Virus record (IMG/VR): IMGVR_UViG_3300027759_000001
Length of the DNA stretch: 64,000 nt
Direction: 5' to 3' (one strand)
Origin: a virus
Taxonomy: Duplodnaviria; Caudoviricetes
The position numbers and the translations under genes were made by a program. Within the stretch, counting starts at the first letter, position 1. Each line of letters opens with the position of its first letter. Below are positions 21,016-56,941 of this stretch, piece by piece. The notes beneath the pieces were generated by a model. The model was not told the origin of the DNA. It did no database searches and saw only the letters and a list, made by a program, of their open reading frames with translations.

Positions 21016-21064
21016 AATTATATAAATACCTTATATTGATATTTATAAATACAAAACAATTACT

Positions 21065-22288
21065 ATGAAAGAAAAATTTTTACCTTGGTTTTTATTATTT
21101 TGTGCTCTTGGTCTATCAGGAACTGCCGCTTATTATAGTGTGGTAGGATTATCAGTGGTATTTGTTGGTGTTGCGTTACCTGTAATCATTATGGGATCTT
21201 TTCTTGAGGTATCTAAGATTGCAATTGCCACATACTTACACGACAAGTGGAAAGAAACATACGGAGTCTTAAAGATATACCTTACAATCGCTCTAATAAC
21301 TTTATCTCTTATTACTTCACTTGGTATCTATGGTTTATTGAGTACTGGGTTTCAGGGGAATATTGCAAAACTTGAGATTAATCAAAAAAAGATTGCAAAT
21401 GTTGAAGTAAAGAAAACAAGATTTATTGAAATAAAAAACGAACAACAGAAAGAGAAAGATGTATTAGATAAGGACATTTCAAAGTTAAGAGATGGATTAT
21501 CTACCAATACCACAACACAATCTGTAGATAGAAAAACAGGTCAACTTATTACAAAGGCAAATAATGCTAACCGTAAATCATTTGAGGATCAATTAAAACT
21601 TACCACAGAAAATAGAGATAAGGTATCCACTCGTATTGATGGTATGAATGATAGTATAACTAAATTAGATATTGAAATACTTAATATGGAATCTGCTGAG
21701 TTGGAAGGTAGTGAGTTAGGATCTATTAAATACATTAGTGAGATTTCAGGTTGGGATATTAAACAAGTTGCAAACCTTTTCATTTTACTTTTAATTTTTG
21801 TATTTGATCCATTAGCAATTACATTAGTTATTGCGACTAACCAAGCATTTAAAAAAAATAAAAAAGAAAGTAGTACCATACATGATACCATACATGATAC
21901 CATACATGATGAGGTTGAAGTTCCTGAAAGTTACTTTCATAATTATACCCCCCAAGTCACCCCCCAAGTCACCCCCCAAGTCACCCCCCAAGTTACCCCC
22001 CAAGTTGAACCAATTGTAGTTGAAAAAATTGTTGAAGTTATTAAGGAAGTGGAGAAGATTGTTGAGGTCATTAAGGAAGTAGAAAAAATTGTTGAAGTAC
22101 CTGTAATAGTACATAGAGATCCATTAAATATTATTGAGGTAAATACTTGGGAACCAACATTTGCTGATAATATGTCTGAGGAAACTGAATATGATATGAT
22201 TAGTAATGGAACGGGTGGTGAGTCAACAACTACCACAACAACTGATGATGGTATTAAAAGATTAGTTTATAAAAAGAACGATGAATGA
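21065..22288 (+). CDS. Multi-pass membrane protein with coiled coil and short repeats
   Basis: Three N-terminal and one central transmembrane segment; TIHD x3, PQVT x4-5 and VEKIVEVIKE repeats. Confidence 0.75.
   Translation: MKEKFLPWFLLFCALGLSGTAAYYSVVGLSVVFVGVALPVIIMGSFLEVSKIAIATYLHDKWKETYGVLKIYLTIALITLSLITSLGIYGLLSTGFQGNIAKLEINQKKIANVEVKKTRFIEIKNEQQKEKDVLDKDISKLRDGLSTNTTTQSVDRKTGQLITKANNANRKSFEDQLKLTTENRDKVSTRIDGMNDSITKLDIEILNMESAELEGSELGSIKYISEISGWDIKQVANLFILLLIFVFDPLAITLVIATNQAFKKNKKESSTIHDTIHDTIHDEVEVPESYFHNYTPQVTPQVTPQVTPQVTPQVEPIVVEKIVEVIKEVEKIVEVIKEVEKIVEVPVIVHRDPLNIIEVNTWEPTFADNMSEETEYDMISNGTGGESTTTTTTDDGIKRLVYKKNDE
21874..21995 (+). repeat. 12-nt tandem coding repeats (accatacatgat x3; ccccaagtcacc-like x5)
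   Basis: Read directly from the sequence. Confidence 0.85.
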
Positions 22289-25281: not shown

Positions 25282-26589
25282 ATGAACAATTATTTAAAAA
25301 ATAAAATTCAAAAACTTATCAACGAAACTTTAGAAGATAAGGCAAATGAAGTTATGGAAAAATTAAAATTTAACAAACCTGGTAGCTCTTTTGACTACGT
25401 TGAAGAAGCTGAATGCTCAGAATGTGGTGGAATGGTTAGAGAAGGTGAATGTTCAGAATGTGGATATATGTCCGAAGGTGACTCACAAGAATGTAATGAA
25501 TGTGGTGGTGAAATGAGAGAAGGTGAATGTTCTGAATGTGGATCCAAAGGTGGTGAAATGATGGAAGATGACGAAATGGATTTTAAAACTCCTATGAGAG
25601 ATGCTATTAGATCACATAAAGGTAAATTTAGAACTCCTATGAGAGATGCTATTAGATCTAATAAAGGTAGATTTAAAACTCCTATGAGAGATGCTATGGC
25701 TATGAGATCTCGTAAAGACAGACATAATGATGTTGAAGATGACATGAACGAAGTTGAGTTGGATGAAAAATTATACGGAAACCAAAAAAGAATTGATAAA
25801 AACCATAATGGAAGATTAGATTCGCAGGACTTCAAAATGTTAAGAAAAGACAAAAAAGAAGATGTAAATGAAAATGTGTTTTATGAATTAACAACTGCAG
25901 TAAATGGTAAAAGAGAAAAACTTTTATTTAATGAAAGTCAGTTTGAAGAAATGATTGAAAATATTGTTTTAAAAGAAGAAGGAAAATTCAATAAAGGTAA
26001 GACACCGGCTGGGTATGCTGAATATGAAAGATCTATTAAAACGTCAAAAAAAAATGAAGAAGGTTATATGAAAGATTTAACCAAAAAAATGAAAGATTAT
26101 TTGAAAGACGGATCTAAAGGCAAATATGAAATGTCACCAAAACATTTTCCAAAAGGAAATGGTGAATTAGAAGAAATGTCTAAAAAAGCTTATGTTGCTT
26201 CAGGTGCAATTGAAGATTATATTGATAACTTCACTGCCGCTGGTTTGGAAAACTTAGATTATGATGAAATCCATCCTGATGAAGATTGGGTAACTGACAA
26301 CGTTGTTGGGTCTTCAAGAACGGGTAATAATCCTGAATGGGCAAACGCAGTTGAGACACCAAATAACGAGAAGAGAAATAAGATTAGAAAAGATAATATG
26401 TTGGCTAAACTTAAGCGTAAGGCTTACAATAAAGCGCCTCAACCAGTTGTAACTGATAAGTCAAGTGGCGGTAAGGCTGATAGTATTATGACTAAGTTAG
26501 AATCTATTGATGAAAAGAAAAAACAAAAAATCAATGAGGATTTTACACGTATTATGGATTTAATGTCTTATAAGAAAAACACCCAATAA
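25282..26589 (+). CDS. Putative head core or internal protein with CxxC repeats and an EF-hand-like loop
   Basis: ECSECG repeats, DKNHNGRLDSQDF, LINE/FNES/KINE motifs, TATTTAT upstream. Confidence 0.6.
   Translation: MNNYLKNKIQKLINETLEDKANEVMEKLKFNKPGSSFDYVEEAECSECGGMVREGECSECGYMSEGDSQECNECGGEMREGECSECGSKGGEMMEDDEMDFKTPMRDAIRSHKGKFRTPMRDAIRSNKGRFKTPMRDAMAMRSRKDRHNDVEDDMNEVELDEKLYGNQKRIDKNHNGRLDSQDFKMLRKDKKEDVNENVFYELTTAVNGKREKLLFNESQFEEMIENIVLKEEGKFNKGKTPAGYAEYERSIKTSKKNEEGYMKDLTKKMKDYLKDGSKGKYEMSPKHFPKGNGELEEMSKKAYVASGAIEDYIDNFTAAGLENLDYDEIHPDEDWVTDNVVGSSRTGNNPEWANAVETPNNEKRNKIRKDNMLAKLKRKAYNKAPQPVVTDKSSGGKADSIMTKLESIDEKKKQKINEDFTRIMDLMSYKKNTQ
25582..25698 (+). repeat. 45-nt coding tandem repeat, about 2.6 copies (F[K/R]TPMRDAIRS[H/N]KG)
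   Basis: actcctatgagagatgctat recurs at 45-nt spacing. Confidence 0.85.
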
Positions 26590-31102: not shown

Positions 31103-31145
31103 TCATTTTTTTATACTATTGGAATATTTATATTAAAAACTTATT

Positions 31146-33035
31146 ATGGAATTAATTAAGGTATTAACATCTGTCATAAAAGAAAATACAAACGGTAAAC
31201 GTATTGTAAGTGAGGCAATGTCTGAAAAAGTCATTAAATTTTTAATTGACAAATTTAAACCTACAACTAGAGATACTGAAGAACAAATTACGGCAGTTAT
31301 TAACGCATTTGAGAAATATAAAAATGGGTTACCTCAAGATCAAAGAGATATCACCAAATTAACTTATACTATTGTTAAGAACATTGTTTTATCAAAAGAG
31401 ATTAAAAAACAAGAAAAAAGTATATTCAAAAAATATATGGAAGCCAATAAAGGTGCCGACAAAAATGCGGTTAAATTGGCATTACGTAAGTTTTACGAAT
31501 TGTTTCCAATCCTACCTATAAATCAAAGAGACGTTCTTAAAATGCCTTATTTGAAATTGGTTGAGTTTTTACAGAGTAAGTTTAATACTATGTTAACATC
31601 AGCGGCACTTAAGAAATTTAAAGATGATAAGGTTAATGTAACACCTGAACAATTAATTTATTATGTTTCAACATATTTGGATCTATATCATAGGTTACCT
31701 GCAAATTTACCACCATTGTTGTTTATGAGTTTTGATGAACTTGAACATACATTAGATGGTATGGGAGATTTAACTGATGACATTAAAGATACAAAAGATG
31801 ATTATTCTGACATTGAAACAATATATGATGATGATAACTTATTAATCTTCAAACCAAGTGGTAAGGAACAATGTATTAAATTGGCTAACGGAAGAAGTTG
31901 GTGTATATCTAAATCAGGTGGTGGTAATATGTATTACAATTATCGTTTGGGTAATAACTTAACAATTTATTATGTTATTGATAAAGATAAACCATTTGGT
32001 GACCTTAACTATTCAGTTGTCATCTTAGTTGAGCCTTATGGTGGAAAACGAATTGCGGATGGTCAAAATATGTCAGGAGGTTATTCAGGTCATAGGAGAG
32101 AAGAATGGAGTACAATTGTAGGTAAAGTTCCAAAATTAAAAGGTAAAGAACATTTGTTTGTTGCGGATCCATTGAGTACTGCTGAACAAAAAGTACTGAA
32201 TGACTACAAAAATACTACCATCAATAAAGATGCGATTAAAGAACTTGGTAGTGAACAAGCAGCTGAAATGTGGCTTGAGCTTTCAAGTCCTGATTTAACA
32301 TATAGAAGTAATGGTGATGAAATTTATCGTAACTTTACCGAAAATCTTAAAAACAAATACTTAGGGTTGGGAATGGACTTGACCGCTGAAATGATTAATA
32401 ATTCTGAACCTAGTGTGTTGAAATATTATGCAGCAAGAAAACTTCAAGGTTTGATGTCAAAAAGTTTAGGTCAATTGAGTGATTCCGATATTGCATTCAT
32501 CAATAGTCCTATAATGAGAGATAATAAGAAAAAATTAAGAGAAAAATTCTCAGGTCAATTAGCCGGAGTTAGTAGTAGTGGTTATGTTGGTCTTGAATAT
32601 CCAAAAGATGATAACTCTAAGTATGTTGCATTATTTGGGTTTGATGATTTCTTTCAACATATTCCAACTAATACAACTATGATCCAAATGGAAAATACAA
32701 GTAAAACTCCAATTGCTTTGGATTTACCGGAAAGTATTGGTAAATTAACCGAATTAAAAACATTGATTATTGATAATATGGTTAAGTCAATCCCTGAAAG
32801 TATTGGAAATTGTACCAAATTGAAATTTATAAACTTACCTAATAACCCACAATTGGAAAGTATTCCTGAGGCGTTTGGTGAATTGTATTGTTTGAACTTC
32901 TTCTCAACGGAGAATTCAAATCCTGGTATGAGAATACCTAAAAAATTAGAAGAATATATGACAGAGGATGAAGGATTTTGGTTTATCAATTTCCCTCCTG
33001 AATTGAAGAAACATTGTGGACCTATAAGATCTTAA
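31146..33035 (+). CDS. Late protein with a WCIS domain and C-terminal leucine-rich repeats
   Basis: CIKLANGRSWCIS; LPESIGKLTELKTL, IPESIGNCTKLKFINL, IPEAFGELYCL. Confidence 0.75.
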   Translation: MELIKVLTSVIKENTNGKRIVSEAMSEKVIKFLIDKFKPTTRDTEEQITAVINAFEKYKNGLPQDQRDITKLTYTIVKNIVLSKEIKKQEKSIFKKYMEANKGADKNAVKLALRKFYELFPILPINQRDVLKMPYLKLVEFLQSKFNTMLTSAALKKFKDDKVNVTPEQLIYYVSTYLDLYHRLPANLPPLLFMSFDELEHTLDGMGDLTDDIKDTKDDYSDIETIYDDDNLLIFKPSGKEQCIKLANGRSWCISKSGGGNMYYNYRLGNNLTIYYVIDKDKPFGDLNYSVVILVEPYGGKRIADGQNMSGGYSGHRREEWSTIVGKVPKLKGKEHLFVADPLSTAEQKVLNDYKNTTINKDAIKELGSEQAAEMWLELSSPDLTYRSNGDEIYRNFTENLKNKYLGLGMDLTAEMINNSEPSVLKYYAARKLQGLMSKSLGQLSDSDIAFINSPIMRDNKKKLREKFSGQLAGVSSSGYVGLEYPKDDNSKYVALFGFDDFFQHIPTNTTMIQMENTSKTPIALDLPESIGKLTELKTLIIDNMVKSIPESIGNCTKLKFINLPNNPQLESIPEAFGELYCLNFFSTENSNPGMRIPKKLEEYMTEDEGFWFINFPPELKKHCGPIRS

Positions 33036-48294: not shown

Positions 48295-50448
<2,154 letters not shown>

Positions 50449-55548: not shown

Positions 55549-55628
55549 AAACAAATTATACGGAAGAACCCTCAGTAGAAATATTGGGGGTTTTTTACTT
55601 TATGAAGTATTTATATTAAAAACCATTC

Positions 55629-56768
55629 ATGGAAGATAAAAAAATTATTATTGAAGAATTAAGTAGGATTAAAAATCTTATGGTTTATGATAGATCTAAA
55701 ACATTAAATGAAAATATTAATGAAGGTTTGTTTGACACTTCGGATGGTAAGATAGCGAGATGGTTATTACCTTCAGGTGATATCATTACCGGAGATAAAA
55801 TAAAAGGGATGATACCTACAGGGGCGGAACAGTTAAATGCTAAAAATGCGGAAAAAGCGATTGATATTGCTAGTGGGTTGAAAACCGCTTCCTCTCTTTT
55901 TGGTGGTGGAGGAGCAACTGCTGCGGCAACAGGTGCTGCTGAGGTTGGAGCTGGTGCCCTTGAGGTTGGAGGCATTACGTATAGTGCTGGTGCGGTTGGT
56001 GCTGGTGCGGTTGGTGCTGGTGCGGTTGGTGCTGAGGGTGCTGCAGCGGCTACTTTTTTAGGTTTAGGACCTGTTGGTTGGATAGTAATCGGTGTTGCAG
56101 GTCTTGCGGCTTTAGGTTATTGGGCGGCAACAAAGGATGATAAAATGGGTATGATTGAAAATTTATTTGGAATTTGTAAATCAAGTAAAGAAAAGGATAA
56201 GTGGAAAAGATATATGAGTGATGAGGAGGTTAGAAAAAATTCAGGTATATTATACCATGCTATGGAAGGTTGGGGTACAGATGAGGATGCAATTTATAAT
56301 GTATTTAAATTGTTTAAAAGTCCTGGTGATTTTTGTGCGGTAAGTGAAAAATATGAAAGTACATTTGACGAATCATTATTAGATGCTTTAGATGGTGACT
56401 TTGATTATGGTTGGGAACCAATTGCAAAATCTTTAGTTGATATGACTAAAAACTATGCTCAAACTGAGGCTGAAGATTATTGTAAAAATAACGTTAAAGA
56501 ATGTGCGGACAAATTAAAATTGTATTGTGAAAAAACGCCTGACGATCCTAAATGTAAAGTTTTGAAAACTAATGTTGTTGACTTTAAAAATTGTAATGGT
56601 GAATACTATAAAGGATGTAAGGGACCAAAAATAGTACAAATACAAAAATGTTTAGGTTTAACTGCCGATGGTAAATTTGGTGAAGAAACAGAAAAAGCGT
56701 TGGAGGAGAAAACAAAAAGTAAAACATTCAAAGACGTAGATGTTAAAACAATATGTGATAAAAAATAA
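55629..56768 (+). CDS. Late protein with a Gly/Ala hydrophobic segment, an annexin-like repeat and a peptidoglycan-binding motif
   Basis: LYHAMEGWGTDEDAIYNVF...KYESTFDESLLDALDGDF; IVQIQKCLGLTADGKFGEETEKAL. Confidence 0.7.
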   Translation: MEDKKIIIEELSRIKNLMVYDRSKTLNENINEGLFDTSDGKIARWLLPSGDIITGDKIKGMIPTGAEQLNAKNAEKAIDIASGLKTASSLFGGGGATAAATGAAEVGAGALEVGGITYSAGAVGAGAVGAGAVGAEGAAAATFLGLGPVGWIVIGVAGLAALGYWAATKDDKMGMIENLFGICKSSKEKDKWKRYMSDEEVRKNSGILYHAMEGWGTDEDAIYNVFKLFKSPGDFCAVSEKYESTFDESLLDALDGDFDYGWEPIAKSLVDMTKNYAQTEAEDYCKNNVKECADKLKLYCEKTPDDPKCKVLKTNVVDFKNCNGEYYKGCKGPKIVQIQKCLGLTADGKFGEETEKALEEKTKSKTFKDVDVKTICDKK

Positions 56769-56785
56769 AATATTAATACATTTTT

Positions 56786-56815
56786 AAACCCCATTTCTAA
56801 AGAGTGGGGTTTTTT
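56786..56815 (+). terminator. Intrinsic terminator
   Basis: AAACCCCAT..GTGGGGTTT followed by a T run. Confidence 0.8.
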
Positions 56816-56941
56816 ATTTAAAAAAAATTTACTATCTTTGTACTATGGTAGGTTTTATACTTTTTTTAGTGATAATAATGGTATCGTTTTTTATTAGGAA
56901 AGTCAATAAAGATAAGGATCATCCATTCAATAAATTCTTTA

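Follow-up and report, generated by a model that had tools for sequence, protein, structure and literature searches.

The annexin repeat is a calcium-dependent lipid-binding unit that is best known from animal cells. To our knowledge, the prokaryotic annexins are few in number, and no role is known for them. A systematic survey of the annexins detected none in viruses (Kodavali et al. 2014, PMC3894181). In this survey, GxGTD is given as the type II Ca2+ motif, and a variant of the loop with a Trp residue is discussed as membrane-contacting (Kodavali et al. 2014, PMC3894181). This Trp form was noted in plant annexin domains and in nine bacterial annexin domains (PMC3894181). Some bacterial annexins carry transmembrane regions and extra domains, and Cys residues are almost entirely absent from them (PMC3894181). 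A search of the literature found no paper on phage annexins.

The internal proteins of phage T4 are loaded by means of an N-terminal capsid-targeting sequence, which gp21 removes after (L/I)-x-E. Mullaney and Black reportedly described, in 1996, the removal of the capsid-targeting sequence of T4 IPI-III and Alt by this head protease. Pb2 of T5 and gpH of lambda are tape-measure proteins that combine hydrophobic segments with domains that degrade the wall, and gp16 of T7 is an ejected protein that inserts into the membrane.

The protein described here, P0001, belongs to an uncultured freshwater jumbo phage and is probably a device that ties the bacterial membrane to the cell wall. It resembles the bacterial annexins (single-domain, membrane-anchored forms of the Bacteroidota; PMC3894181) in its five-helix repeat, its GxGTD/E AB loop, which takes the Trp form (GWGTDE), and its acidic D/E-turn cap. 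It differs from them in being phage-encoded and Cys-rich, and in having the capping Asp one residue further from the loop. Unlike canonical annexins, it has one repeat and not the four-repeat core. The fusion of an annexin repeat with a peptidoglycan (PG)-binding module is not among the architectures of Kodavali et al. 2014 (PMC3894181). The PG-binding module shares a three-helix fold and the motif Q.CLG...DG.FG..T. with the PG_binding_1 domains of endolysins and SleB, but P0001 has no catalytic domain, its sequence scores below the family cut-off, and it carries two Cys pairs.

The N-terminus has its closest parallel in T4 IPI-III and Alt. In both cases, a short amphipathic N-terminal leader is found on unrelated proteins of one phage and is followed by (I/L)-x-E, although here the likeness is one of sequence. 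The tag of P0001 is about 30 residues long and mostly family-specific, and its cargo would bind membrane and wall, whereas the T4 cargo is small and basic. P0001 also shares weakly hydrophobic Gly/Ala-rich segments and a wall-directed module with T5 Pb2, lambda gpH and T7 gp16, but it is much too short for a ruler, its length varies too much, and it has no hydrolase domain. A possible N-in/C-out topology, a disulfide-bearing periplasmic domain and late expression would recall the T4 holin T, the antiholin RI and the i-spanin Rz. However, no sequence or fold similarity to these proteins was found, and no lysis genes are adjacent. The domains themselves are known; judged by the literature and the databases, what is new is their combination, their restriction to phages and the conservation of the tag.

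Genomic Setting and Transcription Signals

The window, which is the whole 64-kb stretch of DNA that was analysed, has a G+C content of 30%. Its phage genes include an SbcC-like nuclease, members of PHROG families, an RNA ligase, a HAD_SAK_2 phosphatase and a metallophosphoesterase. The nearest record is G001, an 86-kb IMG/VR fragment. A protein identical to P0001 was found on metagenome contigs from freshwater lakes, the longest of which is 291,788 bases. The host of the jumbo phage is probably Gram-negative, and probably a member of the Bacteroidota.

The gene occupies one open frame on the plus strand (55629–56768, stop codon counted), starts at the first ATG of that frame and codes for 379 aa. 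It is surrounded by RNA-repair and nucleotide genes (RNA ligase, HAD) and lies outside the structural modules. On its 5′ side, a terminator-like hairpin with a T-run (55563–55596, + strand; −19 kcal/mol, z −5.3 against shuffled sequences, followed by TTTTTT) would close the upstream unit. The promoter-like motif TATTTATA is located at 55608–55615 (+ strand), 21 nt 5′ of the ATG. Similar motifs lie 11–36 nt upstream of the starts at 21065, 31146, 44587 and 48079, and the leader ATATTTATATTAAAAAC..ATT.ATG has a near-identical copy upstream of 31146. On the 3′ side of the gene there is an intrinsic-terminator-like hairpin with a T-run (56786–56818, + strand; −13.8 kcal/mol, z −2.9). The motif and the hairpins on either side indicate that the gene is a transcription unit of its own. 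The initial annotation had referred to a late motif at this position. The motif is indeed present and recurs before other genes, but its status as a late promoter is a candidate assignment made by motif match.

General Features of the Protein

In the Pfam search with P0001, Annexin was the sole family above its cut-off, and the NCBIfam search gave no match. The AlphaFold2 model has block-mean pLDDT values of 66–91 from residue 170 onwards, except around residues 312–317. All 10 Cys residues of P0001 sit C-terminal to the hydrophobic helix, and a Cys N-terminal to the hydrophobic region occurs in 0 of 98 tagged relatives. A homo-oligomer prediction for four copies of residues 168–320 gave a score of 0.04 against a mark of 0.42, which speaks neither for nor against such an oligomer. 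The ESM Atlas neighbours of the protein are clusters of viral proteins assigned to PG_binding or Annexin families, at scores below 0.8 that make them leads only. Those in BFVD are one uncharacterised phage protein and the PG-binding domains of endolysins, all of them weak matches.

The Annexin Repeat

The Pfam Annexin family (PF00191) matches residues 207–258 of P0001 at 25.9 bits (E 1e-5), which exceeds the cut-off of 25 by a narrow margin. The cut-off is clearly passed by the relative P0060 (32.8 bits) and by the G001 orthologue (30.8 bits), and among 33 diverse homologues, 30 are matched at E ≤ 0.01, with a best E of 7.7e-8. When a profile built from the part of the family's sequence that follows the membrane segment (A2) was searched against solved structures, annexins were found throughout the list, with the best single repeats at 24–26 bits (i-E 5e-5 to 2.5e-4). 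The whole-sequence E of 8e-31 obtained for annexin VI is inflated, because the single profile matches several of its repeats.

The predicted fold was compared by structural superposition, an all-against-all search that is independent of Foldseek. Residues 193–273 of the model superpose on annexin repeats with Z-scores of 8.8–7.3 and an rmsd of 1.5–2.8 Å over 60–77 residues, and all 73 residues of the isolated domain (repeat) 1 of annexin I are covered by the model at 1.9 Å. The top Foldseek matches are annexins only; their E-values of 0.02–0.1 are weak because the domain is short.

The repeat itself comprises residues 196–262 (56214–56414, + strand). It is preceded by helices at residues 168–195 (56130–56213, + strand) in the model, in which the alignment shows C183 and W192 to be invariant. 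The AB loop, M-E-G-W-G-T-D-E (212–219), contains an intact type II Ca2+ loop of the form G-x-G-T-(D/E), namely G214-W-G216-T217-D218-E219. In the profile alignment, D257 falls on the capping Asp of the annexin VI repeats (SSD/GD), at a spacing that is one residue longer than the canonical one. Across 33 sequences with identities down to 44%, G214, G216, T217, E219 and D257 are invariant. As P0001 has one repeat, and the curved disc core of four (or eight) repeats is absent, it is therefore an annexin-repeat protein like the single-domain bacterial forms and not a canonical annexin.

The initial annotation had proposed an annexin repeat pattern with a GxGT Ca2+ loop, to be checked with the Pfam Annexin HMM and with AlphaFold/Foldseek. 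Pfam, profile and fold agree on this pattern at residues 208–258 (nt about 56250–56402), GWGTDE is present with its site residues invariant, and both checks led to an annexin repeat, the first by a narrow pass and the second through a predicted annexin-repeat fold with annexins at the top of the list. Judged by its profiles and predicted fold, the repeat of P0001 is a true annexin repeat, and it would bind anionic lipid in a Ca2+-dependent manner. It is very improbable that the likeness arose by chance or is purely structural, without a Ca2+ or lipid function, which would leave P0001 as merely a membrane-anchored wall binder. Such a reading could point to a Pfam score barely above the cut-off, to the weak Foldseek values and to the fact that helical models often reach a Z-score of about 8 by chance. 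It is opposed by the recurrence of the Pfam family in nearly all of the homologues searched (30/33), by a profile search list filled with annexins, and by structural matches of which the best are all annexins and cover the whole repeat. Moreover, the invariant residues are exactly those of the Ca2+ site.

One further candidate was considered in the window. The segment NTDEDVVKKTILKL of a 717-aa protein (48295–50448) is annexin-like by eye; with the family HMM it was not significant, and only the PG-binding part of the protein was weakly matched.

The Wall-Binding End

A Cys-rich helical spacer follows the repeat (residues 263–321; 56415–56591, + strand). Its Cys residues (C285, C292, C300 and C309) are conserved, and the model places helices at 262–287, 289–302 and 307–315. 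The remainder of the protein, residues 322–379 (56592–56765, + strand; C322, C330, C341 and C376), is predicted to be a domain of PG_binding_1 fold. The model of this part is a three-helix bundle that superposes on seven PG-binding domains with Z-scores of 8.0–6.7 and an rmsd of 2.1–2.6 Å over 56–58 residues; the domains matched include 4xxt, the spore-cortex lytic enzyme SleB (6tci), the endolysin of Burkholderia phage AP3 (5nm7) and phiKZ gp144 (3bkh), the last three with Z-scores of 6.9–7.7. The PG_binding_1 family (PF01471) scores 13.6 bits on P0001, under its cut-off of 23. The peptidoglycan-binding motif noted in the initial annotation thus stands as a predicted fold, and as a 44-bit match in P0060, while the Pfam score of P0001 itself is sub-threshold.

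The identity of the C-terminal module changes among the relatives: it is PG_binding_1 in P0060 (44.2 bits), LysM in P0074 (41.9 bits) and PG_binding_3 in P0062. The wall module is therefore swapped for functional equivalents, and this replacement is good evidence for wall binding as a selected property of the family. By the same token, P0001 would be expected to bind to the wall.

The Membrane Segment

The region between the tag and the annexin part begins with a conserved linker (residues 33–85, RWLLPSGDII.G.KIKG.IP.G; 55725–55883, + strand) with pLDDT values of 41–57, which is missing in short relatives (P0131 and P0097 are examples). This is followed by a semi-hydrophobic stretch rich in Gly, Ala, Val and Glu (residues 86–142; 55884–56054, + strand), the length of which differs among the homologues. 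Within it, a perfect 15-nt tandem repeat of 3.4 copies (55984–56034, + strand; TRF score 102, 100% matches) codes for (AGAVG)n; three copies had been counted in the initial annotation. The adjoining hydrophobic helix, as defined by Kyte–Doolittle hydropathy and the alignment, spans residues 143–166 (56055–56126, + strand) with the invariant sequence TFLGLGPVGW ... LG.W, after which comes an invariant TKD. Its core, LGLGPVGWIVIGVAGLAAL (residues 144–162), is 19 residues long with a Kyte–Doolittle value of 1.98 and forms the sole strongly hydrophobic helix of P0001. Across the family, the Gly/Ala-rich hydrophobic region, including the membrane helix, ranges from 27 to 127 aa, and its flanking charges give no positive-inside signal. 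Profiles and predicted fold thus bear out the overall arrangement first suggested for the protein, that of an annexin repeat combined with a membrane segment and a PG-binding domain.

The PHROG matches of P0001 are to tape-measure families (phrog_28). They are weak (best E 1.8e-5) and confined to the Gly/Ala segment, and are read as a compositional or segment-level likeness, not as membership. A tape-measure role was rejected because the length of the protein is variable, with close homologues of 345–511 aa that differ through their Gly/Ala repeats, and because the neighbours are unfitting, being an RNA ligase and a HAD gene and not a tail module. A signal-arrest-release (SAR) segment was likewise rejected, the helix being 140 residues away from the N-terminus.

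The N-Terminal Tag

Residues 1–32 (IIIEELsRIKNLMxYDrSKTLNEN-INE; 55629–55724, + strand) form the tag, an amphipathic helix followed by LNE and then INE. The columns I7, E9, E10, L11, Y20, T25, E28 and N29 are invariant in the alignment. In distant relatives the consensus is ..RIK.LM.YD.SKTL.EN, and conservation ceases directly after E28-N29, a pair that is nearly invariant. The (I/L)-x-E sequence occurs at the tag end as L26-N-E28 and I30-N-E32, in agreement with the LNE/INE leader of the initial annotation (residues 26–28 and 30–32). Some distant relatives have S, N or R at the P3 position of the putative cleavage site (TSKEN, TNKEN, TRIEN).

The first 18 residues of the tag (IIIEEL.RIK.LMG) also begin an unrelated 381-aa protein in two relatives (G003 and G004), where they are followed by I-K-E; this first half has been seen on two cargo types only. 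The full 32-residue tag is family-specific, as a region search with residues 1–40 in a set of 5.8 billion proteins, restricted to those of 208–663 aa, returned family members only. A tag HMM run against all open reading frames of the window found no second copy; the one trace is a weak resemblance at the C-terminal end of P0218. The T4-type head protease (PF03420, Peptidase_S77) had no match in four partial relatives that are 18–29% complete, in which the head region falls outside the searched sequence. From its sequence features, the tag would behave like an address.

Family Distribution and Architectures

There are 70 homologues of P0001 at E ≤ 1e-13, all of which come from metagenomes, and the family is carried by 21 IMG/VR contigs. 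An exhaustive profile search added about 40 further clusters at 50% identity with the same layout, together with hundreds of ordinary multi-repeat annexins. No match was obtained when P0001 and a distant relative, P0083, were compared with 50,697 phage records by tblastn, and blastn likewise gave none. No cultured phage was found with a member of the family. A scan for the conserved peptide patterns of the family profile in 185,579 species genomes found no relative, although a scan by patterns only could let distant cellular homologues escape. The family was found in phage contigs alone. Outside it, the nearest annexin matches are a mix of proteins from bacterial metagenome-assembled genomes and from protists. 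The neighbourhoods of the distant homologues contain no conserved partner gene.

The order tag, hydrophobic region, annexin repeat and PG-binding module is found in 91 of 108 tag-bearing proteins. No signal peptide was seen among the family members inspected, all of which begin with the tag. Short relatives, with a hydrophobic region of 27–37 aa, have the appearance of simple bitopic membrane proteins. P0175, P0204 and P0185 consist of tag, annexin-like, Cys and PG modules and have neither a hydrophobic segment nor a signal peptide. In P0124, a PG-binding module and an annexin-like repeat flank the hydrophobic segment on both sides, and the two halves are 44% identical. P0098 has a PG-binding module on both sides of its hydrophobic segment; in this case the alignment is confined to the wall-binding parts, which are 38% identical.

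Proposed Role and Alternatives

The conserved Ca2+ and lipid residues, the membrane segment and the interchangeable wall modules point to a job at the bacterial envelope. The reading ranked first is that P0001 is a virion-delivered entry protein, to which a probability of about 0.42 is assigned. Under this proposal, the protein would be made late and loaded into the virion through its N-terminal tag, which might be cut after LNE or INE, in the way that T4-type head proteases cut after I/L-x-E. Upon infection, it would be released into the periplasm, where it would attach the site or channel of entry to both inner membrane and wall. The Gly/Ala-rich segment and the hydrophobic helix (residues 86–166) would insert into the membrane. 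Residues 168–379 would be the working end, in which the annexin repeat grips anionic phospholipid head groups when Ca2+ is present, and the three-helix bundle after the Cys-rich spacer holds peptidoglycan. A single molecule could thereby join membrane and murein. The initial annotation had likewise inferred an ejected protein that holds on to peptidoglycan and membrane for genome entry, and the indirect evidence places this reading first; as its other option it had raised a pore-forming effector, for which no finding here speaks specifically.

Virion delivery accounts for the tag, for the members without a transmembrane segment or with wall modules on both sides, and for the tape-measure-like segments; the first half of the tag is also common to an unrelated protein. 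The self-contained transcription unit and the end of conservation directly after E28-N29 are counted in its favour too. Wall modules that have no Sec signal, or that flank the membrane segment on both sides, are difficult to square with ordinary co-translational insertion, and they fit the delivery of whole proteins to the periplasm from outside. Against this, the gene lies outside the structural module, the P3 residue is not always I or L in distant relatives, the full tag was found on this family only (among proteins of 208–663 aa in the search of 5.8 billion), and PF03420 had no match in the four partial relatives (18–29% complete). The short relatives resemble plain bitopic proteins, and Cys residues are found only after the helix, as in an N-in/C-out protein with an oxidised periplasmic domain. 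These last features suit the main rival, which is serious though somewhat unlikely, namely that P0001 is a late-made type II inner-membrane protein (N-in, C-out) with the tag and linker in the cytoplasm and helix 143–166 as a signal anchor. Its annexin, Cys and PG-binding ectodomain, which is small at about 210 aa, would fold in the periplasm with disulfides and tie the inner membrane to the wall. Possible roles for such a protein are the timing or control of lysis, superinfection exclusion, or stabilisation of the envelope until lysis.

A type II protein is in keeping with one sufficiently hydrophobic helix (Kyte–Doolittle 1.98), with 10/10 Cys on its C-terminal side and 0/98 relatives with a Cys before the hydrophobic region, with a PG-binding fold that has to work outside the cytoplasm and with a gene that is not in structural modules. 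The commonest architecture (91/108) is compatible with it too, and the short members fit one span only. It cannot work, however, for P0175, P0204 and P0185, which lack both hydrophobic segment and signal peptide, or for P0124 and P0098, with wall modules on either side. In addition, the flanking charges have no positive-inside signal, and part of the tag is also found on an unrelated soluble protein. A third reading, that of a lysis accessory, is quite unlikely. Here P0001 would enter the periplasm through holin lesions, in the way of endolysins, bind the wall and, by means of its annexin repeat and Gly/Ala segment, attack or fuse the outer membrane in the manner of a spanin or disruptin, as a final step of lysis based on Ca2+-dependent aggregation of membranes. 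The family has no signal peptide and includes soluble members without a transmembrane segment, endolysins typically contain PG-binding folds, the gene is preceded by a late-type motif and annexins aggregate and fuse membranes with Ca2+. Yet genes for endolysin, holin or spanin adjoin the gene in none of the examined loci, the catalytic domain is absent, a genuine hydrophobic helix would take the members that have one into the inner membrane before lysis, and the conserved N-terminal tag is left without a role. The virion, type II and lysis readings have a well-supported core in common, namely a single chain that combines a membrane anchor with a Ca2+-dependent hold on lipid and with binding to the wall.

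If the virion route is true, P0001 would be a rare case of a protein delivered from head or tail that grips both membrane and wall. A wider and doubtful proposal is that phage annexin repeats in general are Ca2+-switched periplasmic grips. The P0001 family would then be a staple between membrane and wall, either injected or made late, whose hold on lipid is set off by a Ca2+ level that is higher outside the cytoplasm, and the cassette of hydrophobic segment and annexin repeat would be mobile between proteins. Were such a grip to exist, prokaryotic annexin repeats would for the first time have a defined role in the cell, and the grip would represent a new kind of phage part for entry or envelope remodelling. 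A cassette of this composition is found in a second protein of the related fragment G001. Over its C-terminal 352 residues, the 435-aa protein of the window (25282–26589) matches a G001 protein of 613 aa at 92% identity, and the 613-aa protein carries a hydrophobic segment and an annexin repeat as an extra cassette.

Leader sequences and the annexin-like cassette

The pairing of a hydrophobic segment with an annexin-like repeat behaves as a cassette whose presence or absence differs among close relatives. The 435-aa protein of the window (25282-26589, +), which bears CxxC Zn-ribbon-like repeats, has an orthologue (L002:1210-3051) in G001, the nearest record to the window, and the C-terminal 352 aa of the two are 92% identical. 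The G001 protein carries an additional cassette of ~165 aa, made up of a Gly/Ala hydrophobic segment and an annexin-like repeat. The window protein ends in RIMDLMSYKKNTQ directly before its stop codon, a C-terminal echo of the N-terminal tag of the annexin protein.

The first half of this tag, MGKNIIIEELDRIKTLMG, also opens a 381-aa protein of unknown family in the relatives G003 and G004 (L039:1492-2637), where it is followed by IKE. In relatives, this gene is found ~24 kb downstream of the one for the annexin protein. The start MKII(L/I)TE.Q...LNE or INE is a second widespread leader class, found on unrelated proteins of relatives and of one distant phage (L020:1803-3032, L024:1423-2658, L013:9520-10284). 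At the nucleotide level, almost the same 5′ leader, ATATTTATATTAAAAAC..ATT.ATG, stands at 31125-31146, ahead of the 629-aa LRR protein, and at 55608-55629, ahead of the annexin protein. An exact palindrome, TATTTATAAATA, preceded by TATAAATA (21021-21051), sits just 5′ of the gene for a 407-aa multi-span membrane protein (21065-22288, +) with no family match.

Neighboring and additional genes

In some relatives, an insertion of two or three genes, coding for proteins of 520, 853 and 331 aa, immediately follows the annexin gene on its 3′ side (L021:2265-7468; L032 and L034:8843-12972). These proteins carry Bacteroidota-style signal peptides, which hints at a Bacteroidota host.

A further wall-binding protein, of 717 aa (48295-50448, +), matches PG_binding_1 at 28.4 bits and also has a second repeat of PG-binding-like type. 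It lacks a catalytic domain and a signal peptide, and its export route is not obvious. Its N-terminus contains LNES/LNED, and the protein has a 17-Asn run.

A Pro/Ala-rich ORF of 96 aa, antisense to the annexin gene (55685-55975, −), is most likely not a gene. It mirrors the Gly/Ala-coding stretch of the annexin gene.
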